In this document: in pieces, positions 3,625 through 63,874 of the stretch
How positions within the stretch are numbered: position 1 is the first letter of the stretch
Layout: every line of letters starts with the position of its first letter
Assembly (NCBI GenBank): GCA_964600575.1
Contig: CAZRJH010000002.1
Location: forward strand, 124,298 to 188,297
DNA from: an uncultured Gammaproteobacteria bacterium
GTDB lineage: Bacteria; Patescibacteriota; Microgenomatia; UBA8517
DNA length: 64,000 bases
Direction: 5' to 3'
Made by a program: the position numbers and the translations under genes
Notes under the pieces: model-generated
What the model was told of the DNA's origin: nothing
Seen by the model: only the letters and a program-made list of their open reading frames with translations
Database searches by the model: none

Positions 3625-3629
3625 AACTA

Positions 3630-6523: not shown

Positions 6524-6543
6524 TCCCGGTAATAGAATACCCC

Positions 6544-6861: not shown

Positions 6862-6863
6862 TG

Positions 6864-9770: not shown

Positions 9771-9883
9771 TTCAAAGTGAATTTTAACACGACAGGAAAT
9801 AAATATTTCATTTGGTATAATTCGCGGACCAGATCCAAAAAACTTAAGCTGGCACCTATAAAAAGGATCGTTAGGAGAAAATA

Positions 9884-10321
9884 ATGTCTACTGTCGGAAC
9901 GCTTTTGAGGCTCTTCCCTGAAAAGGGTGTTTTCCATGTTACCCTTACCCATACAATCTTTGAAGCAGTAGGAGAAATGAAAAGACAAAACATTAGCTCT
10001 TTGTTGATTACAAACGACGAAGATGTCTTTGTCGGCATTCTCTCCGAAAGGGATATCGCCTGGAAGGTGGTGTTGGACAAAAAAGATCCAAACACAACCA
10101 AAGTCGGTGAAGTAATGACACCCCGTAAGGAAATTGTTTCAGTAACGACTCATACCACTTTAACAGAATGTCTTGAGCTCATGCGGGATCACAACATAAG
10201 ACACCTGCCTGTTTTAGGTGGCGACGGCGAGCCTGTCGGAATAATTTCCCTGAAAGACATCACCAGACATCTGGAAATTTTAGCGGACGATCTGCAACGA
10301 TTTATAACCGGTCATCGCTAA
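9884..10321 (+). CDS. Tandem CBS-domain protein
   Basis: 145 aa. Two CBS-like repeats are present (LLITNDEDVFVGILSERDI and VGIISLKDITRHL). SD AGGAG lies upstream. Confidence 0.75.
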   Translation: MSTVGTLLRLFPEKGVFHVTLTHTIFEAVGEMKRQNISSLLITNDEDVFVGILSERDIAWKVVLDKKDPNTTKVGEVMTPRKEIVSVTTHTTLTECLELMRDHNIRHLPVLGGDGEPVGIISLKDITRHLEILADDLQRFITGHR

Positions 10322-46449: not shown

Positions 46450-47562
46450 ATGAAACTAACAGTACTTCAAGAAGATTTTGCTAAGGCGGTGAACATAGCC
46501 TCAAGGTTCGCAAGCCCAAAGGCTCAACTTCCAATATTAGGAAACATTTTGATAAGTTCCGAAAAAACCAAAGTTAGAATAGTCTCAACAAATTTGGAGA
46601 TATCAGCTTCCGTGTCACTTGGTGCAAAAGTAGAAGAAGAGGGAGAGATAAGTATTCCTTCTAAAGTTTTAAACGATCTTGTTAGCAATCTTCCTAAAGA
46701 AACGATAGAAATATCTTCAAAAGAAGAGCAGCTTAAAGTTTCTAGCCCCGGTTTTTCATCTAATGTTTTGGGGATGTCTGCTGTTGATTTTCCCAAGGTA
46801 CCTGCGGGCATAGATAAAAGCAAAGCGGTACCATTACCTTCCAAAGAATTTTCGGACGCTTTATCGAAGGTTACATTCGCTGCATCAATGGACGAAACAA
46901 GACCTGTTTTGACAGGTGTTTTGTTTATAAAAGATAAAAAGAATTTGAACTTAGTAGCCACCGACGGCTTTAGACTGTCTAAAAAAACAGTAAATGTGGA
47001 AAATGATGACGAATTTAAATTAATACTCCCAAAGCTTATTCTTAACGAAGTGGCAAGAGATTCTAGTTCGGAAATGTTTTTTTCATTTGACCAAAACGAT
47101 AAACAAGCTGTATTTTCAAGCGGCGATATCACTTTGACATCAAGACTTCTGGAAGGGGAATACCCCGATTTTGACAAAATTATTCCTAAAAATTCATCTT
47201 TGAGCATATCTGTTGATAAGGAAGATTTTTTAAGAGCGGTTAAGTTAGCATCTGTTTTTGCAAGAGAAGCTTCTAATATTGTTAAGATTAAAGTTCTTAA
47301 AGAATCAATAAAAGTATCTGCTGAAAGCGGTAGTTCCGGGAGCCAAGAAATGAGTGTAGAGGCAAAGATTCAAATAAATGAAAAAGGGAACGAAAACATG
47401 GAGGTTAGTTTTAATTATAAGTTTTTGGAAGATTTTCTTAATTCGATCAAGAGCGATACTTTAACAATTGATTTGTCGGGTCCAAGCTCCGCGGGTGTTT
47501 TTAGAGAAGCCTCAGACTTAGAATATCTTCATTTAATAATGCCTGTGAGGGTTCAGAGCTGA
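46450..47562 (+). CDS. dnaN: DNA polymerase III beta sliding clamp
   Basis: The N-terminus is MKLTVLQEDFAKAVNIASRFAS. The three-domain length (370 aa) and the position after dnaA fit. Confidence 0.9.
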   Translation: MKLTVLQEDFAKAVNIASRFASPKAQLPILGNILISSEKTKVRIVSTNLEISASVSLGAKVEEEGEISIPSKVLNDLVSNLPKETIEISSKEEQLKVSSPGFSSNVLGMSAVDFPKVPAGIDKSKAVPLPSKEFSDALSKVTFAASMDETRPVLTGVLFIKDKKNLNLVATDGFRLSKKTVNVENDDEFKLILPKLILNEVARDSSSEMFFSFDQNDKQAVFSSGDITLTSRLLEGEYPDFDKIIPKNSSLSISVDKEDFLRAVKLASVFAREASNIVKIKVLKESIKVSAESGSSGSQEMSVEAKIQINEKGNENMEVSFNYKFLEDFLNSIKSDTLTIDLSGPSSAGVFREASDLEYLHLIMPVRVQS

Positions 47563-48146
47563 ATAAAACCTTCGTTTTCGGCAGGGGGGTCTTTTGAAAA
47601 ATCTTTCGCCCATAAGCTTAAAAAGTTGTCGAAACTTGTGGGTTCAAAATACCAGATTTCTAAAAGTGTTCCGTCTGCGTGTCCAAGGTATGCAATTCCA
47701 TTTTGAGGATATACATAAAGATTGAATGTGCTGTGGGATTTGTTTTCGTATAATTTAAACGGTGCCGTCCCAAATTGATTGGTTACGTATGTGACATTAA
47801 GTTTGTCATTGGTGTTAACTATTTGCTTAATAAGTGCCAGTGTTCCGTTTCGAAATGTGGCTTCGTGAAATCTATATTGATTGGATGATCTAAATTCCGA
47901 AACAGTTAAAGTTCCTGTTGTTTTTGTGGATATTGGCCTGCCTAGTATCCCGTTTACATCTGTTTGAGTGCTGCTTCCAGGGGTAATATTGCCAAATTTT
48001 GCTTGCTGTGCGTCGGGGCTGGGGGTTTGTGAAGTAGAGGGGGAGTTTACCGGTTTTAAAAATATATTCAAAAATACCAATATTATGAAAGCGATGACTA
48101 AAACAGGGATCCATATTCTCTTTAGAAAATTAATTATTTTCGACAT
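47553..48146 (-). CDS. Bitopic membrane protein (hypothetical), last gene of the T4SS-like cluster and a possible VirB8/TcpC-like component
   Basis: One N-terminal TM (IWIPVLVIAFIILVFLNIFL) is followed by a ~165-aa external domain. The VirB8-like role is inferred from topology and position only. Confidence 0.5.
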   Translation of the reverse strand: MSKIINFLKRIWIPVLVIAFIILVFLNIFLKPVNSPSTSQTPSPDAQQAKFGNITPGSSTQTDVNGILGRPISTKTTGTLTVSEFRSSNQYRFHEATFRNGTLALIKQIVNTNDKLNVTYVTNQFGTAPFKLYENKSHSTFNLYVYPQNGIAYLGHADGTLLEIWYFEPTSFDNFLSLWAKDFSKDPPAENEGFIQL

Positions 48147-48173: not shown

Positions 48174-51020
48174 CTAGGGTGCGAACATTACATTCTTGGC
48201 AAATTGGTAATGTTTGGGATATTGACTGGCGTAATTTGAAATACAGCGTACCCAAGACGAAGTACCGACATAAAGTGCGTTACCCTCGGCCATGCTTTCG
48301 TATTCGTTTCCTACTGTATTGGAATATGAGCAGATTGCCCATTCTGATGTGGGAACTTGTTGTTTAAATTGACTAACTGTGCCTCCATTGATGTTTTGTA
48401 AATGGTGTGAGACCTCATGAGTAAGAATGTAAAGAGCATCTGACTGACTTCTAATTCCACATTGGTTGTAATTAATATCACAACTGCCATTATGGTCGTG
48501 TCTTGCGTAAATAGTTTGGTTACAAAGACCGTTGCCTATTGGATTTGGACTTTTTGTTGTGTAACACATATTAATCTCTCCTCCCGCACAAACCTTTTGA
48601 GCAAAATTTGGATAAGTTCCTGCCAGCGTGGCTGATGCAGAATCTAAATTTGCTTTAAAGTTAGCAGGCCAAGGTTCGTTGTTGTCTACTGTTTTAAAAC
48701 AACCCAGAGGACAGTCTCCAAAACAAACGGAGGCTGACCCAGTTTCCGAAACCTCACCTCCCTCGTTGGAGCTTGCAGTTACCGTAATAGAATCGCTAAC
48801 CAAAGAATCATTGAAACTAGAGTTGTAGTTCGAAGTAAAACTGAATGTAAACGGAGCGCCTGCTGTAATGGTTGCGGGTGCTGCAGGTATTTCTTCCAAA
48901 TTTTTGCAGTCGATTATGCCACCAGCTTTTTTAACGGCGCTGCAAGTATTTGTAAAGCTTATACCTGTAAGGTCATCCTTTTTGGCAGTAATGGTTATGG
49001 TGTAAGTAACAGAAGTGGGGGACGCAAGCTGCCCCGAAGGTTCAGCTTTTTTTTCTACAGACATATAGGGGTTGGTGTTATTTAGACTGGAAGAACTTCC
49101 TCCTGGTGGAATCAGGTAGGCACTATTGTTTATGATTACTAAAATTAAGGCTATCATTAGCGGAAAACCGATAAGAAAACTGATAACAGGTAATCCCAAC
49201 TGTGTCAGGAAAGTTGCCCAGGCTATACTAAAAACTGTAAATATAGAGGAGGCTGTTCCGGAAAAAGCCTGACCCACACCTGTTAGACCTCCTGTCATAA
49301 ATCCAAAAGCACCCAAACCAAGTCCTGCTCCAATTAAGGCGCCAGAAATACCACCTGAAATCAGCATACCTGCAACAGCACCTCCTAATGCTATTGTTGT
49401 TCCGTCTATTTTTTTTGCGTTTTTAGACATCCAGTCTAAAGCTTTTGGACCAATCACAGCAGAAACCAACCCAACAACAGCACCGATAATCAAACTAACA
49501 CCACCTGTTACCGGTGCAGCTGCTGCTGATGCGGCTGCTACGGTGGTTTCCGTAGCAGCAACAGTGCCAACAGTTGCTGCCGTTGCTGCAGTTGCAGTTG
49601 CCGCAGCACCTGCTCCTTCGGCTACTGCAGCTGTAACTCCCCCTACTACTGCTGTTCCTTCTGTCGCCAATACGCCACCGCCAATGGCTGCCGTTTCTGT
49701 TGATATCGCCGCCGCCTGAGTTGTTGCAAGAGCTCCTGATACAGCATCTGCTCCAACTTCTGTACTAATACTGGCTGCTGCTTGTGTTACGCCAAAATCC
49801 ATTCCAGTTATCTGACCAGCCCAGCCAAAAGTTGGTCCGTATCCAAATTCGACTGCCACTCTTCCAAAAAATGTGGTACCCTCCCATGCAATAGGCTCAC
49901 CTAGTCCGTAATAACTTAGGGCTGCTTGGATAACTGGTGCGTTGTAGGCTTCGGCAAGGGCTCCTGATTCAGGAATACTGCTTTCGATCCATGTACCAAC
50001 TTGCCTTAGAAAAACAGACTTAATCTCACCAGAACCAACTTGGGAAATCGTATCAAAAACAAAATCTTGTCGTTGAAGAAAATCAAGTTGCTTTCCTGTT
50101 ACGTTTCCTAAATCATATTCCTCGAATCCAAGCCTTGGTGTGCTGGATATTTCGATTGCCACTCTATCCAAATCTCTTGGACCTAGATAATTCGAGGCAA
50201 AATCTTCTCCAAAAGAAGAGCTAATGATTTTTCTATCGATTTGAAATTCAACAAGCTCAGTTGTAGAAACATTTATTGCGGAATCTCTGAAAGTCTGAAT
50301 ATCGTCATTTTCGATTGACTCCAGCAGGTTAGTATCGTTTGAAATTTTATTTATTGTTACGGCCTCTACAGCAAGTGAATTTCCTCTTAAGTTTTCAACT
50401 ACCCTAACAGCAGCCCTAGTAGAGAGTGCTTTAACCGCTTCTTCATTTGCACCCTGTGGAACATTTGCTTTAATCCTTTTTTCAATTTCAGAAGCCAACT
50501 CCCTTGTTAATTCTCTGGGGTTGTTTTGTGCAGAGGTTCTTAGTGTTTCTGATGTGGGTTGTTTATCTGCAGACAAGGGGTCCGCCTGAGGTGTTGAAAC
50601 TCTTCTGTAAATTTTTCTCCCTTGAGTTTTTTTATGTAATTCCTCTTGTCTTTTTATGGAAGCTTCGACTTGAACTTTTGCATTTTCAGCGCTTTTTCTG
50701 ATAGCTTCTTCCCTTTTAACTCTTTCTGCTTCCATTGCCTCCCTTTTTGCTTTGTCAGGGAGATTTTCTTCTGCTTTTGGTGTTTCTGATCCTATTTTTT
50801 CAAGTACAAATTGAGCATTCTTGACAGTCTCTTTGTCGCCAATTTTTATATCTACACCTGTTAAATTTTTAACTGTTTCTATAAAAGACTGTCTATCGCT
50901 CCATTTAAAATTTCCTGAAACGAATGGCTTATCGCTAACATACACGGCGTTTTCAGGGAAAAAATGATCAAACGCAAGCATTAACTCTTCAACATTTTTC
51001 TTTGTTAATAAATTTGCCAT
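48174..51020 (-). CDS. Mosaic 948-aa membrane protein: cytoplasmic coiled-coil/charged N-region, Ala/Gly/Thr-rich glycine-zipper TM block, and an extracellular Cys-rich domain with an HEXXH motif
   Basis: The first ~370 aa are a charged region (e.g. EAMEAERVKREEAIRKSAENAKVQVEASIKRQEE). An AGT-rich hydrophobic block spans ~aa 370-620. A beta-rich segment then leads to the C-terminal ALYILTHEVSHHL with many Cys. Confidence 0.6.
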   Translation of the reverse strand: MANLLTKKNVEELMLAFDHFFPENAVYVSDKPFVSGNFKWSDRQSFIETVKNLTGVDIKIGDKETVKNAQFVLEKIGSETPKAEENLPDKAKREAMEAERVKREEAIRKSAENAKVQVEASIKRQEELHKKTQGRKIYRRVSTPQADPLSADKQPTSETLRTSAQNNPRELTRELASEIEKRIKANVPQGANEEAVKALSTRAAVRVVENLRGNSLAVEAVTINKISNDTNLLESIENDDIQTFRDSAINVSTTELVEFQIDRKIISSSFGEDFASNYLGPRDLDRVAIEISSTPRLGFEEYDLGNVTGKQLDFLQRQDFVFDTISQVGSGEIKSVFLRQVGTWIESSIPESGALAEAYNAPVIQAALSYYGLGEPIAWEGTTFFGRVAVEFGYGPTFGWAGQITGMDFGVTQAAASISTEVGADAVSGALATTQAAAISTETAAIGGGVLATEGTAVVGGVTAAVAEGAGAAATATAATAATVGTVAATETTVAAASAAAAPVTGGVSLIIGAVVGLVSAVIGPKALDWMSKNAKKIDGTTIALGGAVAGMLISGGISGALIGAGLGLGAFGFMTGGLTGVGQAFSGTASSIFTVFSIAWATFLTQLGLPVISFLIGFPLMIALILVIINNSAYLIPPGGSSSSLNNTNPYMSVEKKAEPSGQLASPTSVTYTITITAKKDDLTGISFTNTCSAVKKAGGIIDCKNLEEIPAAPATITAGAPFTFSFTSNYNSSFNDSLVSDSITVTASSNEGGEVSETGSASVCFGDCPLGCFKTVDNNEPWPANFKANLDSASATLAGTYPNFAQKVCAGGEINMCYTTKSPNPIGNGLCNQTIYARHDHNGSCDINYNQCGIRSQSDALYILTHEVSHHLQNINGGTVSQFKQQVPTSEWAICSYSNTVGNEYESMAEGNALYVGTSSWVRCISNYASQYPKHYQFAKNVMFAP

Positions 51021-51022: not shown

Positions 51023-53029
51023 TTACTTAGTGTCGTATGCACGAGGGTTGAGCCTTGCCATTTCCTCGGGATTGGTTGTTATCAACCTGTTTTCTTCCTC
51101 GGAAGCAACCACTCTTATTGGGGCATGGTGTGGTCCTGCAAAAAATATACCTTCTCCTACATTTGCCGCCAAAAGAAGCTGCTTTTCTCCTTGTGATAAA
51201 TAGAAAACTTCGCCTATTCTATCGATTGCGGCAGGCGATTGTTTTAAAAGTACCTGCATAGCACTGTTGGTAACTATGGCTTTACCAATATCTTGCGCCA
51301 AAAAGTCTTCTACATCCTGTGTAATGGTTGTAAGACCTAAATAATATTTACGGGCTCTTTTGACAACGCTCCATAAAAACTGTGCAGTGTCCGGATATCT
51401 CATCATATGCCAAGCCTCATCAACCAAAAGGACTCTCTTTTTAATATCTTTTTTAACACGGGTCCAAATGTAATCAAGAATTATAAACATTGCAATTGGA
51501 CGTATGGCGTCTTGCATGTCTTTAACGGAGAATACTGTAAACGGATTGTCTAGATTAATGTTTGTTTGTTTATCAAAAATTCCCACAAAACTCCCGCGTA
51601 CAAACTTTTCGATACGGGCTGCAAGGTCGAGTGCGTCGGGAACCTCCATACCTATTAGTGTTTTATATAAATCTTCCATTAAAGGTGGCTCTTTTCCTTG
51701 AGTATCGGGGTCCATTGTTATTCCTTTGTTTTTGTATGTCATAACCAACGACCGGTCGAGTAGTGCATCTTGAGTAGGGGATATTTGTCCCATGATGACT
51801 TTCATTAGAGAGTGGAGTGAAAGTATTTTAAGACCAAGCTGGTTCTCTCCCTCTTCTCTTATCTGAGCAAGGTCAAATGGATTGATTTTTGCATCGGAAT
51901 TATAAGAAAAAGAGATGTATTCACCACCAACCGCTTGGGCTAGAGGTTTGTATTCGTTTTCGGGGTCTAAGATTATAGCCTCCGTTCCCGTCATCAAAGA
52001 ACGAAGTGCCTCGAGCTTAACAAAGAATGATTTACCTGCTCCTGAGGTTGCAAAGATAACCATATTGCTGTTTTGCAAACTAAATCTGTCAAAAATAATA
52101 AAGGATTCGTTTTGTGAGTTGATTCCGTATAAAACCCCCCGGTCGCTGGAAAGTTCAGTTGATGTTAAGGGGAATGTTGTAGCAACGGATGTTGTATCCA
52201 TGTTTCTGGTTATACTTAACCTATCCATTCCAAACGGAGCAGTTGAAAGGAATCCCGACTCTTGATCTAAAAGTGCGTGCTTAGAAACGATAAGCAGTGA
52301 ACCAAGTTGTGACTCGATTTGTTTTGTCACATGGTTAAGTTCATCTACTGAGTTTGCCGGTATGGTTATATAAAAGGAGAATTCATAAAATCTTTCTATT
52401 CCCTTAACAAGCTGCTCCTGCAAAGCTTTCGCGTCTTCCAATTTTGCGGAAGTAGAGGGGTCGACTATTTTTCCGCGTTCTATATCTGTCGAAATTTCTG
52501 CTTCCATTTCGGCGATTTTGCGCCTAAGGTCATCCAGAACCGATTTTCCGTCTACAGGATAAACATAAAAAGATATATCCAAACTGGAATCAAAGTTAAC
52601 GACGGGCTCCAGCCATCCGGGTGAAACAAATCTAGGATATCCTCCTACAAAAATTGTACGAAAATACACATCGTTGATTTTTATATAATCAAAATCTTCC
52701 TCGATTGTTTGAGATGAGATTACATCTAAAACATTGGCGCCTTGAGTAACTGCCAGTCCCGGATTTGTATATTTTTGCTTGGCTTGTTTGATTTCCGTCT
52801 GAGTTGGTATGTTTGGTGCTACAGGGCTCGCTTGTGGTGCCGGTTGTTGTGCTACGGCAGGCGGAGTCATAGGTTGAACGGGTTGGGGTGGATCTTGCTG
52901 TGCAACATTCTGAGGAACTGGGGCAATTTGTCCGGGTTGTGGATTTGGATTTAAAGGTGGTGGTGTTATCCCTAAAGCAGAGGGTGGAACAGGGTTTTGT
53001 GGTTTAGAAAAAGGTAATTTTATATTCAT
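51023..53029 (-). CDS. VirB4/TrbE/CagE-family T4SS ATPase (central and C-terminal part) with a Pro/Gln-rich N-terminal extension
   Basis: YFRTIFVGGYPRFVSPGWLEPVVN matches the VirB4 'YRRHLSLKSLPAE...' segment. Walker A is ATSGAGKSFFVKL and Walker B is VLLVDEAWHMM. Confidence 0.8.
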   Translation of the reverse strand: MNIKLPFSKPQNPVPPSALGITPPPLNPNPQPGQIAPVPQNVAQQDPPQPVQPMTPPAVAQQPAPQASPVAPNIPTQTEIKQAKQKYTNPGLAVTQGANVLDVISSQTIEEDFDYIKINDVYFRTIFVGGYPRFVSPGWLEPVVNFDSSLDISFYVYPVDGKSVLDDLRRKIAEMEAEISTDIERGKIVDPSTSAKLEDAKALQEQLVKGIERFYEFSFYITIPANSVDELNHVTKQIESQLGSLLIVSKHALLDQESGFLSTAPFGMDRLSITRNMDTTSVATTFPLTSTELSSDRGVLYGINSQNESFIIFDRFSLQNSNMVIFATSGAGKSFFVKLEALRSLMTGTEAIILDPENEYKPLAQAVGGEYISFSYNSDAKINPFDLAQIREEGENQLGLKILSLHSLMKVIMGQISPTQDALLDRSLVMTYKNKGITMDPDTQGKEPPLMEDLYKTLIGMEVPDALDLAARIEKFVRGSFVGIFDKQTNINLDNPFTVFSVKDMQDAIRPIAMFIILDYIWTRVKKDIKKRVLLVDEAWHMMRYPDTAQFLWSVVKRARKYYLGLTTITQDVEDFLAQDIGKAIVTNSAMQVLLKQSPAAIDRIGEVFYLSQGEKQLLLAANVGEGIFFAGPHHAPIRVVASEEENRLITTNPEEMARLNPRAYDTK

Positions 53030-53038: not shown

Positions 53039-53746
53039 TTATTTTTTATCCATTACGACTTCTGGCTCTTTTTTAACCGCGGGTCTTTCGGGATTGTAAA
53101 TTGTATAAAAAAGGTTAACCAGCTCCGGAGTGGTTAGTTGTCTGAATTTTATACCAAGTCTACCCGCCTGTCTTACTAAATGATCGCGTCTGGGGTACAA
53201 AGTGATTTTTGCCTTTTTAATTACAAAAGATTTTGCATAAGGCAAAGGACCGGTTCTTCTTGTAAGTGATTGAACAGATTTGCCTACACCCAGTTCTAAG
53301 GGAGAAAGATACAAAACCACAAAAAACCTTTTACCTAAAACATTTTTCTTTTTGACGGACTCGGAAATAAAGCCTCTGTAGTTTGTCATAAGCCTTATTA
53401 AGAGGGGGTGTGTAAGTTTTTTGGCTTGTTCATCAAGAAAATTAAGATAAGAGCTTATATCCTTTCTGGAGGTTCTAACAATAATTTGTACGGAAAAAGA
53501 TAAAGAGTTAATCATTGCGGCATATGCTGCAATGACTGCCTCCTGCTCTTTTTCGCTTAAGAGTCCAAAGTTTAAAGAGGTTGATTCCATAACAAGAGCT
53601 GCGCCCCCGTCTTTGTAAATCAAAATGTCGTTTGTAATGTCTGCAATTGGTAAATGATCTTGGGTTGTAGCCGTTATTGGTTTGTCGGGAATAGAAATAA
53701 AAGGAACTTTTGGAAAATTTGATAGGTCCGGTGGTTTTATTGCCAT
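53039..53746 (-). CDS. VirB4 N-terminal domain, encoded as a separate ORF in frame with the downstream ATPase ORF
   Basis: DHLPIADITNDILIYKDGGAALVMESTSLNFGLLSEKEQEAVIAAYAAMINSL aligns with the VirB4 N-terminus (YLPY..HLSDHIVLLEDGS..AFELEEIE..NTLLRNI). The stop TAA at 53039-53041 is in frame with ATG 53029. Confidence 0.6.
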   Translation of the reverse strand: MAIKPPDLSNFPKVPFISIPDKPITATTQDHLPIADITNDILIYKDGGAALVMESTSLNFGLLSEKEQEAVIAAYAAMINSLSFSVQIIVRTSRKDISSYLNFLDEQAKKLTHPLLIRLMTNYRGFISESVKKKNVLGKRFFVVLYLSPLELGVGKSVQSLTRRTGPLPYAKSFVIKKAKITLYPRRDHLVRQAGRLGIKFRQLTTPELVNLFYTIYNPERPAVKKEPEVVMDKK

Positions 53747-53748: not shown

Positions 53749-54891
53749 TTAGTTAACTCCGACTGCCATAGGGTTTTGTACGACTGCGGGTGTCTGTTGT
53801 GGTGGAGCCTGTGCTACCGCCGAATGTTTACCTTGAATCAGTATTGGCGGTATAAGGTTTCCTGTTGTTTCAAAAGTATAAGGAATAAAGTCGAATCCGT
53901 CTTTTTCGGTAATGACATCATATCTACCAATCTCCAAGGGTGTTACGGTTATAAAATGCCCTGCTTTGTTGCTTCTTAATGCCCTTATCGGTCTTCCTGC
54001 GGAATCTCTTATTTCCATAATAGCTCCCTCGATTATTTTTCTGTTTTCATCCACAACCTGGCCGACAACAACATTTGGTATTGTCGGCGGGCTGGGAGGT
54101 GCCGCGTCAATTGAAAACAAAGCTTGTTTTGCCGAAACAATTTCTTCACCAGCAATAGTGGGTGCAACCTGGTGTGTTGTTATCTCCGGAGCAGATATAA
54201 GCGGGTCCGCTTTTCTTTCTTCTACAACCAAATGCGGAATATTAGACACGACTTTGATTGGCGCAGTTTGTGGTATCTGGAGTTCCTTTTGCGGTTCGAC
54301 GGGCTTAGGTGCTACCGCGACATTTTCTTTTGGCATAGTAAGCGGTACAACGGGGGGCTGTGGAACAGTGGGGGGTGGGGAAACGGGTGCGGCAGGAACT
54401 CCAGTAGAAACAGGGCTGACAACACCTGTAAACATACCTGTTAGAGTTGCCAAAAATCCTTGCTCTGCCATGTCCATTTTTGCGGAAGAGCCTGATTTTT
54501 GATTTGCAACGGATAAATAGTCGTTAAGTGCTTTTTCCTGAGGTGCCGCAGTTTCTACAGAAACAGTGCTTGCAGGTTCGTCCAAAAAAAACTTCGTGGC
54601 AACTTTTGTTTCTTGCCAATAGAATTCGGTTGGGGCGTATATCGCCCTAAAAAAAGCAAAAATCCACTTTTCCAAAGGCCGTTCTTCTAAGGGTAAAAAT
54701 GCCAAACAAACACCAAGGATTGCCGAAACGATTACAAACGGCCATTTAATTATTCCTATGAGTGGTGCGGAATAAAAAATTAGGGCGACCAAAAATCCAC
54801 CCGCAAGTTGAAAAAATTGCTTAAGGGTCATTTCTCCAACCAAACGAAATTGATAGGAGCTTATTTGTTGTGGTATTGCGTGTTGTTGCAT
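53749..54891 (-). CDS. PrgI/VirB3-like T4SS membrane protein fused to a Pro-rich linker and a C-terminal transthyretin/CarboxypepD_reg-like beta-sandwich domain
   Basis: The N-terminus is FRLVGEMTLKQFFQLAGGFLVALIFYSAPLIGIIKWPFVIVSAILGVCLAF (PrgI-like, two TM). The C-terminus is VVGQVVDENRKIIEGAIMEIRDSAGRPI...GRYDV. Confidence 0.5.
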   Translation of the reverse strand: MQQHAIPQQISSYQFRLVGEMTLKQFFQLAGGFLVALIFYSAPLIGIIKWPFVIVSAILGVCLAFLPLEERPLEKWIFAFFRAIYAPTEFYWQETKVATKFFLDEPASTVSVETAAPQEKALNDYLSVANQKSGSSAKMDMAEQGFLATLTGMFTGVVSPVSTGVPAAPVSPPPTVPQPPVVPLTMPKENVAVAPKPVEPQKELQIPQTAPIKVVSNIPHLVVEERKADPLISAPEITTHQVAPTIAGEEIVSAKQALFSIDAAPPSPPTIPNVVVGQVVDENRKIIEGAIMEIRDSAGRPIRALRSNKAGHFITVTPLEIGRYDVITEKDGFDFIPYTFETTGNLIPPILIQGKHSAVAQAPPQQTPAVVQNPMAVGVN

Positions 54892-55441: not shown

Positions 55442-58156
55442 ATGGCAGGTGGACCCGAACAGGGCGGAATGGACCCCAAACTAGAAGAAGCTCTCAAAAT
55501 GGAGATGTCTTTGCGTAACGAACAATCTAGGGGCATGTATTTGTCCGATTTGGACAGATTTAAAAAGAGTCTTACCGAACTAGATATGGCCAAAACAGAG
55601 GAGGAGAGAGAAATGGCCAGGGAGCGTGCCTACGAGCATTTTGACGAGATCAAAAAACAAGAGCTGGGTCACCTTGAATTTATAACAGACAAACATATGA
55701 GTTTTGAGTTTGCGTTCCCTTACGACTCCAGACAAGGCGCTGTCTGGTTTATGGCAATGCGAAGGGATTTAGAGGATACGCTTGCCCTAGACGAAGACCA
55801 TGGAGGGTTCAAAGAAGATAGTGAGGCTAGAAAGTGGGTAGAAAACTTATATGACGCTGTTGTTTGGGGTGATGGAAATTATGGTGTACAGGAAGGCTTG
55901 AATACAATTAATTATTACTTCGGAGGATTCGACGCAATGGCTGCAGGGCTTCAGTCAATGAAACTTAGAATCACATCCACAAAGATGGCGGATGCAAACT
56001 CCAGAGATGTTAGAGGTGCTGGTTCAAATGAAAAAAGTGCAGAAGGTCTAATGGTAGCGAAAGGAAAGGTTTTGGGTAGTAAAAAGCTTGAAGTTCCTCA
56101 TACATACTTCGATAAAAAACTAAAGAAGAAGGTTACCGAAACAAGACAGGTCGATTGGTTAGTTAAACAAAAAGAGGCGGTTGAAAATATTAGGGAAATT
56201 GGCGTAAGCGGACAAGACGAGTTTTATTATTGGAGAAATCTTGTTGCAGCAGTTGCTCAGTATGATTATGCACAGCCCAACAAGGATGGCTTAATGCGTG
56301 CCAATAAGGTTAGACAAGGACTGGAGGTTGATTTTGTGGTTCAGCTTTTTGGCAAAAAAGAAGCTGACGGAAGGACTCCAAAGATGGTTGCTAGTGAAAA
56401 AGGTGTGGCTCCTGACTCAATCTTAAGTTTCTTTACAATGGCTGACACAAAGAAAAACAGACGTGAATACAGGCAGCTTATGATGGCTTTAATGGAATGC
56501 AAAGCTATGGATAAGTTAGCTGCGTGCAACGAAGAAACTGATCCCAACAAACCTCCGCGAGTAAACTTGGCCCAAATGCAAGTTTTACTTAACGAGGTTA
56601 AGGATGCTAAAGACAGGATAGCGAAAAGAGAACAAAAGAAGGCTCCTTCTACAGAAGATAGAATCAGATCTGTGGTAGTTAAAAATGGTTTGATTTTTGA
56701 TATTGCTTCGGGCGGCTCCGGTCCTATGGCTTGGCAGTTTGAGTATAAAATGACCAGGAACAAAAGGGGTAAGGATGGCAAGGTAATCCCTGGAACCGGC
56801 AGGATGGTAAGAAGAGTAGATTTTGGAGGCATCAATCAAGCAGGAGATTGGTACACACCTGAGTTTTGGCTACTTCATAACCTTCTCTACGACAAAACAA
56901 GCAGACTCAGGTCCAAAAAAATGCTTGCGACTCCTGATAGGTATCGAAAGGCGGTTCTGCAGGAAAAAAGTCCTTTCGAAAAACCTTTATATTCTCTAGA
57001 AGAAGCTAAAAAAATTGATCCTTGGCAATATAACGAAGTACAAAAAATTGTTGCGGAAGATGATGAGGAGATATTGGTTAGTGGTGACGACGACATGTTT
57101 GATCTTTTTATGGCAGGAGGCCTTAACGAAAAACAAAAGGCCGACATGCGAAAGGCGGGAAGACTCATGAAAGCCGGTGATTGGAGGGAGCAAAATAAAT
57201 TTAGAATAGATCCTGTTATAAGAGAGGCTCTCAAAGACGCAGTTTGGTTCCAGGAAATACCATATCCGATTGGAACCAATTCTGACGGCTCGCCCGTCTT
57301 CCCGCTTTTTGCTACATTTATCCCTCCCAGGTTTAAGATGAGCTTTTTTGACCATGTTAAAACGAGGGATGAAAAAGGAAGGCAGGTTACAATGCAAGAT
57401 AGGCTAAGAAACGCAGACTTAAAGCTTTCTGAAGTTGACTATGAGAACGACCTAAAAGAACATCAGTGGGATAGGTGGCTTGTGAACATGAACATGGGTG
57501 AACGTTTGTTGAGGTTTGCTGCAGAACCGGGTGATCCAAGAGCAGAAGAAGCTATCCTTGGAGGGACCGGAACACTCAAGGAGGGAATCAAAAGAACGGG
57601 ACTTCACAACAGAGACTCGTTTTATGCGTACGAAGTAGAGGTTCCTGATGCAAGTGCTCCCGGAGGTAAACGTAAAGAAACCCGTTATGCACCGGGGTCG
57701 TTTTTTGAATTAGTTTTAGTCGGCCAAATGAATATGTTGCATGCAGTTAAAGGTAATCCAAGAGCGAGAGATGCATCCGACGCAATTCCAACCGACCTTA
57801 TCAGCCCTGCAATAGAGGACGATGAGTTCTCCAACAGGTGGGAGAACATTGTTATGCCTGAGTATATTAATGCGGCTAAGTATTTGACTCCCGACACAGG
57901 CGAAGATGAGGGAACTCCTGAGTTTTACAACGAAACCTTGGCAATATTAATGGCTGTGACGGGCAATTCACTTTTTAGAATGGCACTTGAAGGGGGATCT
58001 AACTCTGTACACGACAAGATGGTTGTCGTTAATCAACTAAGAACAATGAAAGTTGACCGAAAGAAGCGTTTGGTTAAGAGAGGAGCGGTTAACTTTACAG
58101 AGAACAATCCCAATACTCAGCTCTCTGCAAAAGTTGCTTACTCTAGTAGAAAATAA
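55442..58156 (+). CDS. 904-aa soluble protein of unknown function, encoded antisense to the T4SS-like operons
   Basis: Long clean ORF with no TM, P-loop or relaxase His-triad seen by eye. Rich in Arg/Asp/Glu/Met/Trp. A promoter-like TTGACT-N17-TATAGG and a TATAAT lie upstream. Confidence 0.7.
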   Translation: MAGGPEQGGMDPKLEEALKMEMSLRNEQSRGMYLSDLDRFKKSLTELDMAKTEEEREMARERAYEHFDEIKKQELGHLEFITDKHMSFEFAFPYDSRQGAVWFMAMRRDLEDTLALDEDHGGFKEDSEARKWVENLYDAVVWGDGNYGVQEGLNTINYYFGGFDAMAAGLQSMKLRITSTKMADANSRDVRGAGSNEKSAEGLMVAKGKVLGSKKLEVPHTYFDKKLKKKVTETRQVDWLVKQKEAVENIREIGVSGQDEFYYWRNLVAAVAQYDYAQPNKDGLMRANKVRQGLEVDFVVQLFGKKEADGRTPKMVASEKGVAPDSILSFFTMADTKKNRREYRQLMMALMECKAMDKLAACNEETDPNKPPRVNLAQMQVLLNEVKDAKDRIAKREQKKAPSTEDRIRSVVVKNGLIFDIASGGSGPMAWQFEYKMTRNKRGKDGKVIPGTGRMVRRVDFGGINQAGDWYTPEFWLLHNLLYDKTSRLRSKKMLATPDRYRKAVLQEKSPFEKPLYSLEEAKKIDPWQYNEVQKIVAEDDEEILVSGDDDMFDLFMAGGLNEKQKADMRKAGRLMKAGDWREQNKFRIDPVIREALKDAVWFQEIPYPIGTNSDGSPVFPLFATFIPPRFKMSFFDHVKTRDEKGRQVTMQDRLRNADLKLSEVDYENDLKEHQWDRWLVNMNMGERLLRFAAEPGDPRAEEAILGGTGTLKEGIKRTGLHNRDSFYAYEVEVPDASAPGGKRKETRYAPGSFFELVLVGQMNMLHAVKGNPRARDASDAIPTDLISPAIEDDEFSNRWENIVMPEYINAAKYLTPDTGEDEGTPEFYNETLAILMAVTGNSLFRMALEGGSNSVHDKMVVVNQLRTMKVDRKKRLVKRGAVNFTENNPNTQLSAKVAYSSRK

Positions 58157-58205: not shown

Positions 58206-60020
58206 TTAGTGTCTTTCTGTCCCACTTTTAACGTTCTTGACGACACTGTCAACTCTATCGCCAACATACCTGTTCTGTCGTAGTTTTTCAACAGATCTCT
58301 GCAAGAAGTCGAGCTTGCTCATGTCAGTTCTATTCGCTTCCCAGTCTCTCATATACTTAGCCAATCCTTCTTGGCTGTTAAGTTTTCTAAGCATTTCCAC
58401 TCTATCACGAGCACCCGATGCGCCATATGCCCAACCGACAGGTGCCAAAGCTTCGCCTATCGCAGTTCCATATGCAAACGGCCTGCCGCTCATAAGACCT
58501 TGCAGGACCTCTGTTGCTTTTGGAATTAATGTAAATAGTACAAAGCTTACACCGAGCATTAAAAGCCCTGTTCCGCCGCCTGTAGAGGCGCTGGCACTCA
58601 AAAGGGGAGGCCATGCAGAGTTGTATACAAAGAATCCTCCAACATTCGCGATTGTGGATTGTCCAAATAAAAAGCCTAATATTCCTGTTCCAAGATTACT
58701 ACCAAGCCCCTCCCAGGCCAAAACAACTCCTTGTTCCAAAAAGACATACGAGAAAAATATTAAAACACTTGTGAGAACAAAAACCCCCAAGTTAGTAGCA
58801 TAACTTCTTAACCAAGCCCCGAATCCGAAACTGGGGAACATGACGCCGGCGACAATTTGAACAGGTGCAAATATAGTTAAAAGAATTATGTTGGTAAAGG
58901 CTTTTAATAGTCCGAACATCGTCTTAAACAATTGAACAATGATTACGATGACTATAACTATAGCCAAAACTATAACTATAATTCCGGTAATAGGGGTTAA
59001 GATTGCAAACAAGGGTGCCAAAATAGTACCAACAACTCCAATGACGGCGGCTCCTAGCACCCCAACTGTTAAGAAGAGAGTAATAATGAGTGATATTGGG
59101 AACAAGACAAGATAAATTAATAAAAGTCCGAGTAGTCCTAACTCGACACCACCACCACCTCCACCAACTCTACCTGCGGTGATGAATTCGAACACAGTGG
59201 AAGCAGAAACGCTTCCACCAAATGGAATAAAGCCTTTTCCTAACAGTGCAAACAAACCATAAAGAACGTACATCAAATCGATCATAAAACCCGCAATAGC
59301 ATAGGAGAAAGTTACTAAAATCAAGGCACCGATTAGCTTGGGAAGTGCTGTTTGCACAGAGATAACAACTTGTGGCGAAATTTTGACTCTAAACATTATC
59401 ATAAATGCAAAAGCGATCGCTGCTATAACAAAAAGACCGAAAGCTAAATCTCTTGATGTTTGCCACATTGCTTGAACAGGTTGTAATGCGTTGAATCCAA
59501 AACCTACAACTTGTGCATGCGCTTCGGGAACTATGCTAAAGTTGTTTACTTTCTGTCGAACATAGTTAACTCCAGACATTGGCCTGTTTTTGTCAAAAAT
59601 TAAACTCAAAAGTGGCTTTTCGGGAGCCTTTGGCCTATTTGCCATTTCCTGAAGTTGTTCCGGTGTTGCCGAAAGTAAGCTGGCACAAGCATTAACATTG
59701 GCTGAGTTTTTAAACAGACAGCTTAAAAGTTTTTGATTGCTGGTTTGATTAACCAAAAAAGAAAGAAGTCCGTAAACAACCCATTGAACCTGGGCTGCGG
59801 TATATCTTTCTCCAAAAATTTCACTTTGGTTGCTGTCGTCGTAAACTTTGGAATACCAATCCTGGAAGCTGGAGTTATACCAAGTGCCAGCTGGGGCAGG
59901 GGTGGGGGCTGCAGCTTTTGCCGCCATAAAAGGCGCAAAAGAAAATAGCATTACCCAAGCTGCCATCAAAGAAATTAAGAACTTTTTTAATAACATGTGA
60001 GATTTAAGAAAGAAAGGCAT
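58206..60020 (-). CDS. VirB6/TrbL-like polytopic T4SS channel protein (putative)
   Basis: 604 aa. A signal peptide and a ~170-aa external domain are followed by ≥6 TM helices with Gly-rich loops (GGGGGVELG) and a cytoplasmic C-tail. The assignment rests on topology and context. Confidence 0.45.
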   Translation of the reverse strand: MPFFLKSHMLLKKFLISLMAAWVMLFSFAPFMAAKAAAPTPAPAGTWYNSSFQDWYSKVYDDSNQSEIFGERYTAAQVQWVVYGLLSFLVNQTSNQKLLSCLFKNSANVNACASLLSATPEQLQEMANRPKAPEKPLLSLIFDKNRPMSGVNYVRQKVNNFSIVPEAHAQVVGFGFNALQPVQAMWQTSRDLAFGLFVIAAIAFAFMIMFRVKISPQVVISVQTALPKLIGALILVTFSYAIAGFMIDLMYVLYGLFALLGKGFIPFGGSVSASTVFEFITAGRVGGGGGGVELGLLGLLLIYLVLFPISLIITLFLTVGVLGAAVIGVVGTILAPLFAILTPITGIIVIVLAIVIVIVIIVQLFKTMFGLLKAFTNIILLTIFAPVQIVAGVMFPSFGFGAWLRSYATNLGVFVLTSVLIFFSYVFLEQGVVLAWEGLGSNLGTGILGFLFGQSTIANVGGFFVYNSAWPPLLSASASTGGGTGLLMLGVSFVLFTLIPKATEVLQGLMSGRPFAYGTAIGEALAPVGWAYGASGARDRVEMLRKLNSQEGLAKYMRDWEANRTDMSKLDFLQRSVEKLRQNRYVGDRVDSVVKNVKSGTERH

Positions 60021-60169: not shown

Positions 60170-62839
60170 TCAGTTTCCGTGAGCAACATCCCAGACACAA
60201 GCATTGTGACTCTGGCTTGAATAACGGTTGCTGATTGTTTCGCAGGTATCTCCAACAGGGCAGGCGGCAGCTAGTCCTCCCAAAGCACATCCATTTTCCA
60301 CAGTCATACACATACTTGTATAACCGCTTTCGTAGACTTTTATGGCAGACTCGTATTGTTCATCCGTCCAGCTACAAGAGGAGGGTACGGGCGCACTTAG
60401 TTTTATTCCAAAACAAGTTGGGGGAAGGCCGCCGCCGCCATCTGCACTGTCGTGAAGGTTATAGGCCGCCGCGAATATTGCATCCAACAAATTACATTGA
60501 CTAAATTCTTTTCTGGCAGGATCGATTTTTTGCAGGTCGGCTTTTATTTTGGGAACTGTTCTTTCGAAAACGGTTCCGTTAAAGCCCATAAAATGATCAT
60601 CTCCGGTCTCATTACATCCAGGAATCTTGGTGCATGTTGCCCAATTTTTAACATTTTGATCCGTCCATTCGTATCTTCCTGGGTTAAAAAGACCTTCTCC
60701 AAACATTTGAGCCACTAATAAATTTGGCGGTACCTTGTATGTTTGTGCAGCCGCAGAAATAATATCTTCCAGTGACTTGGGTAAGTTTCCAACTCTGGAG
60801 CTTACCCCTCCTAATTGACAAGAACCCGAGGCTTTGGGGAGTTCCGGAAGCTCTCCGCAAACAACATTTGTGCAGGATTGTCCGTTAACAGGCTGAGCTC
60901 CGCCGTAACCTTTTGGCCTTAAAGCTGTTTGGATTCCGTTTAAAAAATATTCTAAAACTCCCCCGTAATGCGGGTAGAAAACTTTTGCTTCTAAAGCATC
61001 CGTCTTGTTTGCAAACGATCCCATGCGGCTGTCATCGGGAAGTATCACCTGTGTAAGCCTTATTCCCTGACTACTTGGATCGGTAATTTTATAAGTTGCT
61101 TTGGATTCGGCAGGAATATCTGCAATACAAGACACAGGAGCATTCGCACCTGTTTTTGGGTACATTCTTCTAAATATTGCGTCAGGACCTGCTACAGTGT
61201 TATTCCATATTTCGTCCGCAAATGGGGTTTTGCTTACAGTAGGGATTGTTGCGTAAACTTCGGATTCACAAGTTGCAACCATTTCACAAACCGTTTGACC
61301 ATATGTTGGGCTTGTGGGATTGTTGTCTTCTCGACATTCTTCGTGTGGTTCACTACACTGAATTTCGCCGACATCGTATTGGACATCAACTTCTATCCAT
61401 TTTTTGGGAGACTCAAAGTTAACATCGTCCCCGGGGTTGCTTCTGGAATTTAATATTTTACAAGGGGCTCTGTTAACTTCGACATCGCTCAAGCTTGAAG
61501 CCGCGGCGTTTGAAGAACCACCAGCCGGTGCCATTGGAACGAAGGTCTTTTTTAACAAGCTGGTAAGTTCGTTGTTTTCGTCTGCATGGGGAAACCACTG
61601 ACGAAATGCCGGTTTGATAATTTGGTAGTCCGATTCTACTATTTCGGCTTTGGCTGCACTCACATGTGCAAAAAGAACCATATGTCCTCCTGGTATGTCT
61701 CTATTGTTGGCAAGGGGGATGTAGGGGAATAGGTCAGCATATTTATTGGGAACGAGCAAATTTTCGAAACAGGCAAGTCTATCGATAATCGGAAGAATAA
61801 AACAGGTTTGACCCCTCCATTCGTAATATGCTTTTTGATAATCTACATTTCTTGCGAACGGTTTTCCTGTGCCATCATCCCAAGGAAGCGGCGGTCGTCT
61901 AAGATTCCAGTGGTTACCGATTGAAGCTTCGATTGCACCCGTAGAAACAAAAGGAAAGAGAACATTGTAAGCATTTACTGCGGTCCTGATGGTGGCGTTT
62001 GATAAAACATTAAATATGGATAAATTACCGTTCCAGTCTTTGAGTCTGTAAACATCGCCGCTTGCCCCGGCACCTCCGCCTTTGTAACACTCCTTAGGGG
62101 TTGTTTTACCGACATTAAACAGGTCTACAATCCAGCCCAAAAGGCCACCTCCGCCTTCACCTGCACAAACTACAATTTGATTGTGGTTCATTTTGTCGGG
62201 CGAAGATTCGCCTGTTTCGTCGTCTGTTGCGCTTGTCGATTCGTCGGGGGATTCTATTGTTTTTACTCTTGCAGCGTCTTGAATTACAGAAGGTAGGAGT
62301 CTCCTAAGAGGCCCGGAATAGTTAACTTGTTGGGAGATGTCGCTTTTTGGGTATTCCGCTTTGTCGCTGACACCGTTAAGGTACCAAGCAACATAGTCGT
62401 TAACTTTTGTTCCGTCGTCCATTGTGCCAGTGCCATTAACGCTATTAGAAGTTAACTCTGTGTTTCCCATGATAGGGAGTTCCGCATCCAACATTTCTAC
62501 AGCAATCTTCTTTTCGTAGTGAGTTATTGTTGGGGTGCATGTTGGATCGCCTTTGTAAGGACATTTGACTGTGTTTAGATATATAACTACAGCGTTTCCG
62601 CACCAATAAGTTTTTGGAGCATCGCCACAAGGAGAGGCTTGGTATGGGCGACCACTACTGTATTCGGGATTCTTTTCGTCTTCACAGGGAATGTTTCCTG
62701 ATCTTGGAATTGCATCGGCCGCATTGAGCGTGTTTATTTGGAGCGTTAAAAAAACAAAAGCAACACCAAGAACTAAAGTTGTTAACGAATAAAGCAAACT
62801 AATAAGTTTTTCCGGTTTTTGGAGTTTTTTGTTCTGCAT
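60170..62839 (-). CDS. Secreted Cys-rich 889-aa protein with a C-terminal lysozyme-like/lytic-transglycosylase-like region (VirB1/PrgK-like candidate)
   Basis: N-terminal signal/TM. More than 40 Cys. LLVAQMFGEGLFNPGRYEW resembles the SLT motif LLAAIAYQESRFNPNA, with Gly in place of the catalytic-adjacent Ser. Confidence 0.55.
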   Translation of the reverse strand: MQNKKLQKPEKLISLLYSLTTLVLGVAFVFLTLQINTLNAADAIPRSGNIPCEDEKNPEYSSGRPYQASPCGDAPKTYWCGNAVVIYLNTVKCPYKGDPTCTPTITHYEKKIAVEMLDAELPIMGNTELTSNSVNGTGTMDDGTKVNDYVAWYLNGVSDKAEYPKSDISQQVNYSGPLRRLLPSVIQDAARVKTIESPDESTSATDDETGESSPDKMNHNQIVVCAGEGGGGLLGWIVDLFNVGKTTPKECYKGGGAGASGDVYRLKDWNGNLSIFNVLSNATIRTAVNAYNVLFPFVSTGAIEASIGNHWNLRRPPLPWDDGTGKPFARNVDYQKAYYEWRGQTCFILPIIDRLACFENLLVPNKYADLFPYIPLANNRDIPGGHMVLFAHVSAAKAEIVESDYQIIKPAFRQWFPHADENNELTSLLKKTFVPMAPAGGSSNAAASSLSDVEVNRAPCKILNSRSNPGDDVNFESPKKWIEVDVQYDVGEIQCSEPHEECREDNNPTSPTYGQTVCEMVATCESEVYATIPTVSKTPFADEIWNNTVAGPDAIFRRMYPKTGANAPVSCIADIPAESKATYKITDPSSQGIRLTQVILPDDSRMGSFANKTDALEAKVFYPHYGGVLEYFLNGIQTALRPKGYGGAQPVNGQSCTNVVCGELPELPKASGSCQLGGVSSRVGNLPKSLEDIISAAAQTYKVPPNLLVAQMFGEGLFNPGRYEWTDQNVKNWATCTKIPGCNETGDDHFMGFNGTVFERTVPKIKADLQKIDPARKEFSQCNLLDAIFAAAYNLHDSADGGGGLPPTCFGIKLSAPVPSSCSWTDEQYESAIKVYESGYTSMCMTVENGCALGGLAAACPVGDTCETISNRYSSQSHNACVWDVAHGN

Positions 62840-63189: not shown

Positions 63190-63519
63190 TTATACAGAGG
63201 GGATAACCAAGGAGAAGATATCGATGTGGAAGAATGTGTTGATTAAAGCAACAATTGCCCAGGCTGCGAAAACTATAACCAAGCCTACTAAAGCTGCTGT
63301 AATTTGATTTCTAGCAGACTCCGTTTGAGCTTTGTCTCCGCCTGAAGCAATCCATTTGATACCTCCAATGACCAAAATAAAGAAGAAGACGATAGCTGCT
63401 ACAACTACTGTGAGTCTGATTAATGCCGAAATAAGACCAGGAATAGTAAGTTTGGCCAAAGGAGCAAACTGGGTTCCTTCACCCGGCTGCAAATTAATTT
63501 GTGCTAAAAGGTTGTTCAT
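63190..63519 (-). CDS. VirB2/TrbC-like T4SS pilin paralog 2
   Basis: 109 aa with the motif IGGIKWIASGGDKAQTESARNQITAALVGLVIVFAAWAIVALI. Confidence 0.55.
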   Translation of the reverse strand: MNNLLAQINLQPGEGTQFAPLAKLTIPGLISALIRLTVVVAAIVFFFILVIGGIKWIASGGDKAQTESARNQITAALVGLVIVFAAWAIVALINTFFHIDIFSLVIPSV

Positions 63520-63526: not shown

Positions 63527-63874
63527 TTATCGAATCCCTAGTGCCGCAATGTCAAGAGTCAGAATGTGTATATGGAAGAACGACTCTATAACTTTAATTA
63601 ATGCGAAAGCTGCAAAAGCCAAAACCATGCCTACCAAAGCGTTTGTAATCCTTGCTCGGGCGGTTTCAAGTGCTTGTTTGTCTCCGTTAGACGAAATCCA
63701 TTGGATTGATCCCAAGATGAGCATGAAGAAAAAGATAACTGAGCCGATTAAAAAGGCCATGCCAATAGCGGCCGGAACGGCTTTTTGAAAATAACTCTCA
63801 CCTGTGTTGTTTTCTAGTTGTCCAAGTGCAGGATTGCCGATTACCCCCGATGCTGCTGCTATTAAGTTGTTCAT
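63527..63874 (-). CDS. VirB2/TrbC-like T4SS pilin paralog 3
   Basis: 115 aa with the motif ILGSIQWISSNGDKQALETARARITNALVGMVLAFAAFALIKVI. Confidence 0.55.
   Translation of the reverse strand: MNNLIAAASGVIGNPALGQLENNTGESYFQKAVPAAIGMAFLIGSVIFFFMLILGSIQWISSNGDKQALETARARITNALVGMVLAFAAFALIKVIESFFHIHILTLDIAALGIR

Follow-up and report, generated by a model that had tools for sequence, protein, structure and literature searches.

We analyzed a 64,000-nucleotide stretch of contig CAZRJH010000002.1 (the window; positions 124,298 to 188,297 of the forward strand, GenBank assembly GCA_964600575.1, an uncultured Gammaproteobacteria bacterium that GTDB places in Patescibacteriota, Microgenomatia) and focused on the gene for a 948-amino acid (aa) protein in the operon of a type IV secretion system (T4SS). 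The open reading frame (ORF), which extends from ATG to stop, is encoded by the minus strand; many stops interrupt the frame on the plus strand, and an initial annotation of the same DNA was less accurate in its reading direction. The charged N-terminal part, beta-rich stretch, Cys-rich C-terminus and HEXXH motif that this annotation had described within a 948-aa ORF were all recovered in the sequence, as was its position directly downstream of VirB4, the stop codon of which is 2 nt before the ATG. The operon runs in the order PrgI-like, TrsD-like, VirB4, 948-aa ORF, and small exported protein, with gaps of 2-27 nt, and is composed of the following genes.

53749..54891, minus strand: PrgI/VirB3-like membrane protein (Pfam PrgI, E 7e-5)
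53039..53746, minus strand: TrsD/TraC-like protein (NCBIfam TrsD, E 5e-7; orthologous genes carry PF26593)
51023..53029, minus strand: VirB4-like ATPase (NCBIfam conju_CD1110, CD1110-type VirB4, E 1e-109; Pfam P-loop_TraG)
48174..51020, minus strand: whole ORF of 948 aa, scaffold and zincin head (an identical sequence is present in the public collection as P0001)
47553..48146, minus strand: predicted membrane-anchored exported protein of 197 aa, second gene of the cassette described below and cognate partner of the zincin head

Downstream of the 197-aa partner gene are dnaN, dnaA, rnpA, yidD, and yidC. The same operon order was found in all 14 other loci (15 with the window) wherever the contig was long enough. 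Quinonero-Coronel et al. described the T4SS of Patescibacteria as chromosomal and origin-proximal, devoid of a relaxase, and equipped with arrays of VirB2-like pilins and a TrsD homologue (PMC12102498), and the window locus is a chromosomal origin-proximal Patescibacteria T4SS, Microgenomates-like, that matches this description. One related locus occurs in a metagenome-assembled genome (MAG) named Candidatus Microgenomates. Two others, L003 (CAZRGC010000003.1) and L004 (CAZWNZ010000001.1), are Patescibacteria-type loci in MAGs titled 'uncultured Gammaproteobacteria bacterium', which is probably a taxonomic mislabel.

We examined the architecture of the protein by composition, hydropathy, and AlphaFold2 (AF2) models, one of the full-length protein (alignment of 76 sequences) and one of the C-terminal domain alone (aa 766-948, 38 diverse sequences). 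Lys, Arg, Asp, and Glu make up 22-42% of each 50-aa block in the N-terminal part to about aa 350, Ala, Gly, and Thr make up 40-76% per block over aa 401-600 (about 55% across the whole stretch), and 12 of the 12 Cys residues of the ORF fall between aa 693 and 926. The protein was divided as follows.

49977..51020, minus strand: aa 1-348, folded, mainly helical N-terminal domain without a signal peptide, confident in AF2
49515..49976, minus strand: aa 349-502, conserved aromatic/Gly segment (WEGTTFFGR..GYGPTFGW), then an acidic low-complexity linker rich in Ala, Gly, and Thr (composition; predicted local distance difference test score, pLDDT, <50)
49122..49514, minus strand: aa 503-633, membrane block of 3-5 predicted helices with glycine-zipper motifs (hydropathy, GxxxG, AF2 helices)
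49107..49136, minus strand: aa 629-638, exit/junction motif IINNSAYLIP where the last membrane helix ends (translation verified), one of two cassette breakpoints
48720..49073, minus strand: aa 650-767, Ig-like beta-sandwich spacer with invariant Cys693 and Cys705
48177..48719, minus strand: aa 768-948, junction IGxPPxxC..WP and M34-like zincin catalytic domain
48405..48419, minus strand: HEVSH (His868, Glu869, and His872), the predicted two zinc ligands and catalytic base, inside a helix and invariant in 113/113 representatives
48285..48299, minus strand: ESMAE (Glu908..Glu912), with Glu912 as the putative third zinc ligand; each Glu is kept in 112/113 representatives

A hydrophobic Ala/Gly/Thr block of about 250 aa had been proposed in the initial annotation. 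Its membrane portion, at about aa 503-633, stands, with hydrophobic helices by hydropathy at about aa 503-526, 543-579, and 593-633 that contain GxxxG runs and with AF2 helices at aa 510-534, 542-554, and 591-633, but aa ~410-500 is an acidic, low-complexity linker that is predicted to be disordered (pLDDT 26-35). In one homologue the linker is K-rich, and the relative P0026 showed a weak match to Gly-zipper_YMGG. The beta-sandwich was modeled confidently at aa 653-767 of the full-length protein and matched Ig-like, CARDB, and pilin domains. The C-terminal domain was likewise confident in the full-length model and reached a pLDDT of 92.6 and a predicted template modeling score (pTM) of 0.90 when modeled alone. 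No PDB relative of the N-terminal domain was found among the top matches. Hydropathy, the lack of a signal peptide, the charged N-terminus, and the confinement of all Cys residues to the C-terminal third suggest that the N-terminus is inside, the domain of aa 1-348 being cytoplasmic, and that the C-terminal third is extracellular.

The GC rise noted for the Ala/Gly/Thr region was reproduced (0.47-0.53 across 49250..49999 vs 0.39 for the window). Only codon positions 1 and 2 contribute to it (GC1 0.62, GC2 0.635), while GC3 is 0.23, below its value elsewhere in the gene; the rise is therefore due to Ala/Gly/Thr codons and not to foreign DNA, and on this low GC3 we rejected the region as foreign GC-rich DNA. 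The patch would be a false positive in composition-based foreign-DNA scans. A repeat-driven assembly artefact, which had been raised as a caveat, was also rejected, because Tandem Repeats Finder (TRF) detected micro-repeats only (2-3 copies of 15-29 nt) and homologues from separate assemblies retain the region at a comparable length. Promoter and terminator scans gave signals at shuffle level and were uninformative.

We next consider the C-terminal domain. The ORF contains exactly one HEXXH motif, and by our rough estimate one such motif is expected by chance in about 3% of proteins of 948 aa. A chance origin is excluded because His868, Glu869, and His872 are invariant in all 113 HEXXH-bearing representatives of the protein family described below, which are at most about 50% identical. 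HEVSH is located inside a helix (aa 859-877) in both AF2 models, and Glu908-x-x-x-Glu912 is on the next long helix (aa 906-918); the domain has the overall zincin fold, with a beta-sheet N-subdomain, an active-site helix, and a helical C-subdomain. The zincin-like, peptidase reading of HEXXH in the initial annotation thus gained support, and the check on the third ligand that it had proposed likewise pointed to a peptidase. Glu912 is 40 residues past His872, and in PPEP-3 the third ligand Glu197 is likewise 40 residues past His157 (PMC12828418). The 39-40-residue spacing after the second His and the EFFAE-like motif that characterize the Glu ligand of M34/ATLF enzymes are both present. The metal ligands are thus likely to be His868, His872, and Glu912, with Glu869 as the catalytic base. 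Four Cys residues are also strongly conserved among the 113 representatives (C774, C811, and C897, 100%; C926, 94%).

The closest matches of the domain, in both structure and sequence, were the Pro-Pro endopeptidases PPEP-1, -2, and -3 and anthrax lethal factor, followed in structural searches by MtfA, M1 aminopeptidases, botulinum light chains, and thermolysin. Its sequence profile found PPEP-1/Zmp1 as the best PDB match (E 0.013), aligned from HEXXH to the C-terminus with ESxAE paired with EFFAE by HMMER. Identity was low, 12-14% to the PPEPs and 12-17% to the PPEPs and lethal factor together. Judged from residue conservation and from the models, the domain is best supported as a catalytically competent zinc endopeptidase.

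The family to which the protein belongs became visible by exhaustive HMMER search only. Word-indexed homologue searches yielded just 5 full-length and 4 fragmentary relatives, and such a search with the N-terminal-domain alignment returned none, presumably because the list of 8000 candidates was saturated by charged low-complexity words. With a five-sequence profile, exhaustive HMMER retrieved 853 cluster representatives at E<=1e-3 (353 of them also at E<=1e-30) from a collection that keeps one representative per 50% identity cluster. This scaffold family has no Pfam model, and its full-family profile had no match among PDB sequences. The full-length window protein matched nothing in Pfam, NCBIfam, and PHROGs except for a 26-residue, motif-level match to YpfJ (E 0.007).

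We classified 156 members, comprising the 150 best of the HMMER search and the relatives found earlier, with sub-domain hidden Markov models (HMMs). The HEXXH domain was present in 113, and the other 43 carried a different tail of 150-230 aa. Pfam classified 33 of these 43 tails, as Peptidase_M23 (28), CHAP (3), and Amidase_2 (2), all of them peptidoglycan hydrolases. The C-terminal enzyme, hereafter the head, is therefore exchanged on a common scaffold. P0037 (zincin) and P0143 (CHAP) share 80% identity without a gap over residues 1-585 and are unrelated beyond; the similarity ends exactly at FIINSGAYxVPP, the end of the last membrane helix, and the VirB4 fragments upstream of the two genes are 95% identical. 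The N-terminal domains of P0056 and P0102 are 63% identical, and their heads are different. Heads differed in 35 of 65 N-terminal nearest-neighbor pairs, a proportion that is inflated by the clustering of the collection at 50% identity. The junction motif [IV]IN[SN][GS]AYxxP was found in 138/156 members irrespective of head type. A second junction lies past the beta-sandwich at IGxPPxxC..WP: P0026, which bears an M23 head, aligns with the window protein as far as aa 787 but not beyond.

P0102 itself, an M23-type member encoded at 4001-10039 of locus L013, is 2012 aa long with about 1100 additional N-terminal residues. In the same locus VirB4 is split into two ORFs of 383 and 218 aa, and a gene fusion, frameshift, or pseudogene could each account for the arrangement.

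The gene downstream of the scaffold changes together with the head. In 15 of 15 loci examined, the family of the downstream gene matched the head type. The six zincin loci encode a family of 185-203 aa, in which all pairs were related at E<=1e-25 with 33-54% identity, at the following positions.

47553..48146, minus strand (window): zincin-type partner
12788-13360 (L001): zincin-type partner
4425-4982 (L002): zincin-type partner
3068-3643 (L007): zincin-type partner
8744-9325 (L010): zincin-type partner
6750-7361 (L012): zincin-type partner

The four M23 loci have a family of 329-343 aa (E<=1e-32) and the two Amidase_2 loci a family of 381-386 aa (E 5e-22), while the two CHAP loci and one locus of an M23 subtype (M23b) have Big_5 Ig-like proteins. 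The window partner is unrelated to the downstream genes of the M23, CHAP, and Amidase_2 loci, and the small genes downstream of P0037 and P0143 are unrelated to each other. In all partners a basic N-terminal stretch precedes a hydrophobic anchor, and they should therefore face the exterior of the membrane. A profile of the window partner found no credible relative in Pfam and PDB; a weak match to BamE (E 0.016) was under the cut-off. The enzymatic head and the next gene are thus exchanged as a unit, a two-gene cassette, between closely related scaffolds, and the co-variation of the two persists across scaffolds that are about 30% identical, which argues for functional pairing.

On this evidence, we consider it probable that the 948-aa protein is a membrane-anchored, envelope-cutting subunit of the T4SS, a functional analogue of PrgK/VirB1 that carries a zincin head within a two-gene cassette. 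The N-terminal domain, encoded in one operon with PrgI, TrsD, and VirB4, would dock on the VirB4 ATPase platform. The flexible Ala/Gly/Thr linker and 3-5 glycine-rich membrane helices would then take the chain to the outside, with the exit from the membrane at the IINxxAYxxP motif, and the Ig-like spacer would hold out a disulfide-stabilized zinc endopeptidase with the fold of anthrax lethal factor and Pro-Pro endopeptidase (M34-like). This head would be one of at least four interchangeable ones (zincin, M23, CHAP, and Amidase_2), each swapped along with the gene behind it. The cell envelope is the most likely target of the zincin, because the classified alternative heads are peptidoglycan hydrolases and one of them, the amidase, is not a protease. 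The zincin may cut peptide bonds in the stem or cross-bridge peptides of peptidoglycan or in wall-linked proteins, and such cleavage would let the T4SS and its VirB2-like pilus pass through the producer's own wall, the host wall, or both.

The proposed role resembles that of the VirB1-like wall hydrolases of Gram-positive T4SSs, PrgK (pCF10), TraG (pIP501), and CwlT (ICEBs1), which are encoded in T4SS operons and needed for passage through the wall (PMC11323569). All three place hydrolase domains outside the cell, behind an intracellular N-terminal domain and a membrane anchor, which in PrgK is one helix (PMC11323569), and the predicted topology of the window protein would follow the same plan. 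Other members of the scaffold family carry domains of the same kinds, M23 and CHAP. This class fits the protein better than the VirB6, VirB8, or adhesin slot with which the initial annotation had compared it, as 33 of the 43 members without HEXXH bear peptidoglycan hydrolases. No sequence homology between the window protein and PrgK, TraG, or CwlT was detected with Pfam and NCBIfam, however, and it differs from them in its larger cytoplasmic domain, in having several glycine-rich helices instead of one, in the Ig-like spacer, and in bearing a single head instead of two or three, without an SLT/muramidase domain. The hydrolase domains typical of the class (SLT/lysozyme, CHAP/NlpC-P60, or M23) are absent from the window protein, which has a zincin, but present in its scaffold homologues. 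To our knowledge, an HEXXH zincin has not been described as the hydrolase head of a T4SS.

A second point of comparison is SEML1_0007 of the Saccharibacterium Southlakia epibionticum ML1. This 1113-aa protein is encoded directly behind virB4, has a C-terminal Hedgehog/DD-peptidase fold, and was essential for epibiotic growth by transposon sequencing (Tn-seq), as were the T4SS genes of this strain; the gene behind it encodes a lysozyme/cysteine-peptidase protein (PMC10633639; PMC12102498). SEML1_0007 and the window protein, which we compared by position and fold only, are thus alike as large hypothetical proteins behind virB4 that end in a peptidase fold, and differ in that the head of the former has an M15-like Hedgehog/DD-peptidase fold and that of the latter a zincin fold. 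The PPEPs and lethal factor (MEROPS M34, Pfam ATLF) differ in another respect, being freely secreted, whereas the Cys-rich domain of the window protein is tethered to a T4SS scaffold.

Several observations weigh against the proposed envelope-cutting T4SS subunit. We know of no peptidoglycan hydrolase with an M34-like fold, and lethal factor cleaves MAP kinase kinases. PPEP-1 cleaves Pro-Pro bonds of adhesion proteins, so that cells are released (PMC11460543). In a Pfam scan of 38 domain sequences (E<=1), ATLF was not among the best 25 of the 32 matched families, and the other curated zincin models also missed the domain or matched it at motif level only. In PPEPs, an oxyanion Tyr precedes the Glu ligand by 7 residues; it aligns with N905 of the window protein, in a variable, gapped column. 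The sole candidate for this function is Tyr899, which is 96% conserved, is located 13 residues before E912, and might replace the PPEP Tyr. AF2 confidence was low across aa 349-647, and the membrane topology was derived from hydropathy and Cys distribution. Finally, the co-variation of head and partner could in part reflect physical linkage, because the cassette sits between conserved flanks, the 5' part of the scaffold gene and dnaN. Since ATLF was not among the matches listed, identity to PPEPs was 12-14%, and the oxyanion Tyr had no aligned counterpart, we treat the head as a new zincin family that is structurally nearest to M34, not as a member of M34; the PPEP family has been described from Firmicutes only (PMC8610288).

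Polymorphic toxin and effector-immunity cassettes are known from contact-dependent inhibition (CDI) and Rhs systems and from the X-Tfe/X-Tfi peptidoglycan-hydrolase effectors of the Xanthomonas T4SS. They share with the scaffold family a conserved N-terminal part that ends sharply at a conserved motif, C-terminal enzymes that can be interchanged, and a co-varying small downstream gene. The frequent exchange of head and partner resembles these cassettes, and by analogy the head may suit the envelope of the host, with a protective or regulatory role for the partner. The differences are that the head of the window protein is built into a membrane-integral subunit of a machine that is apparently essential and does not belong to a released toxin, that its cassette is at a fixed chromosomal site beside dnaN, and that immunity as the function of the partner and toxicity of the head are conjectural. 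More speculatively, the protein might carry a polymorphic, host-directed 'drill head' fitted to the envelope chemistry of the bacterial host on which these epibionts live, with the partner as its cognate immunity protein or regulator and cassette exchange at IINxxAYxxP as host-range adaptation. We put this forward tentatively and consider it less likely than not.

Among the alternatives to an envelope-cutting subunit, the strongest is that the head is a protein-specific, PPEP-like endopeptidase that the scaffold merely positions at the T4SS. Wall-anchored and S-layer proteins, whether of the host or of the producer, could be substrates of the head, as could the VirB2-like pilins during maturation, and three pilin genes are present in the locus. 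All of the best structural and sequence matches (PPEP-1, -2, -3, and lethal factor) are protein endopeptidases, and some PPEP homologues have cell-wall anchor domains (PMC8610288). Because every solved close relative cleaves proteins, the alternative keeps some weight. In close relatives of the window protein, however, the same scaffold position is filled by M23, CHAP, and Amidase_2, which act on peptidoglycan, and a protein substrate common to all heads is unlikely because Amidase_2 is not a protease. The low identity to PPEPs and the absence of their oxyanion Tyr from the aligned position also speak against PPEP-like specificity, and we regard this alternative as unlikely overall.

It is far less probable that the zincin domain lacks catalytic activity and serves for binding or regulation, in the manner of the degenerate LytM of PrgK, and that the protein is a structural component, adhesin, or spacer. 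The precedent is real, as the LytM of PrgK is degenerate, its CHAP is inactive in vitro, and both regulate the muramidase (PMC11323569). Degenerate domains lose catalytic residues, however, whereas the residues expected of a catalytic gluzincin are invariant or nearly so in the 113 representatives, and 33 of the 43 non-zincin members have an H-x-H tripeptide in the last 190 residues. The reading as a VirB6/VirB8-like channel component or surface adhesin with an incidental HEXXH, to which a polytopic membrane protein directly behind VirB4 and the existence of extended VirB6 proteins with large hydrophilic domains (PMC12857230) lend some color, was rejected as very improbable, because no TrbL/VirB6, VirB8, PrgH, or PrgL model was matched in Pfam or NCBIfam, the protein has 3-5 membrane helices only where a VirB6/TrbL protein would have at least five, a better candidate for VirB6 is the 604-aa polytopic protein encoded elsewhere in the locus (58206..60020), and the Pfam-classified variable part is always a hydrolase.

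The T4SS of Patescibacteria, its origin-adjacent site, and a peptidase homologue behind virB4 in one Saccharibacterium were already known. In the searchable literature, we found no description of the scaffold family, of an M34-like zincin as a T4SS envelope enzyme, of the junction motif, or of two-gene cassette exchange. A large part of the uncultivated diversity of bacteria belongs to Patescibacteria, and in their sole genetically tractable species the T4SS is essential for growth on the host. The scaffold family is large, is unrecognized by curated models, lies directly behind VirB4, and is predicted to present an enzyme outside the cell, and with it an anthrax lethal factor/PPEP-like zincin would join the repertoire of T4SS envelope enzymes. 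Three handles, namely the active-site residues, junction motif, and partner gene, are available for asking whether the producer's own wall or the host wall is cut and whether host range follows head type. If the tentative 'drill head' model is correct, cassette exchange would be host-range adaptation within an essential secretion machine, and the partner would protect the producer.

Further genes of the T4SS locus are as follows; the remaining genes of the window are housekeeping genes (UvrD, MetRS, ValRS, and GroEL).

58206..60020, minus strand: 604-aa polytopic membrane protein with long hydrophobic runs, without a model match
60170..62839, minus strand: predicted secreted Cys-rich protein of 889 aa
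62853..63137, minus strand: divergent VirB2-like pilin (Pfam T4SS_pilin PF18895, E 1.5e-7)
63190..63519, minus strand: divergent VirB2-like pilin (PF18895, E 3.3e-8)
63527..63874, minus strand: divergent VirB2-like pilin (PF18895, E 2.5e-4)

The pilin array is as reported for Microgenomatia and Saccharimonadia. The 604-aa protein is the likeliest VirB6 analogue of the locus; VirB6 is reportedly scarce in Microgenomatia (PMC12102498). The 889-aa protein had no match in Pfam, NCBIfam, PHROGs, and PDB sequences, and motifs resembling SLT/lysozyme domains (FGEGLF, FMGFNG, and AAAYNL) were noticed by eye in its C-terminal 240 aa. The product of 53749..54891 continues beyond its PrgI-like part with a Pro-rich linker and a C-terminal beta domain similar to prealbumin/CarboxypepD_reg (Pfam E 2e-4 and 1e-3). 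Divergent from the PrgI-VirB4 operon, the plus-strand gene 55442..58156 encodes a 904-aa protein without a family match. Counterparts of 670 to about 1076 aa occur at the same position in most related loci (L005 3527-6298; the first gene of L008, L010, L012, L013, and L015), and this protein may be a further conserved T4SS-associated component.

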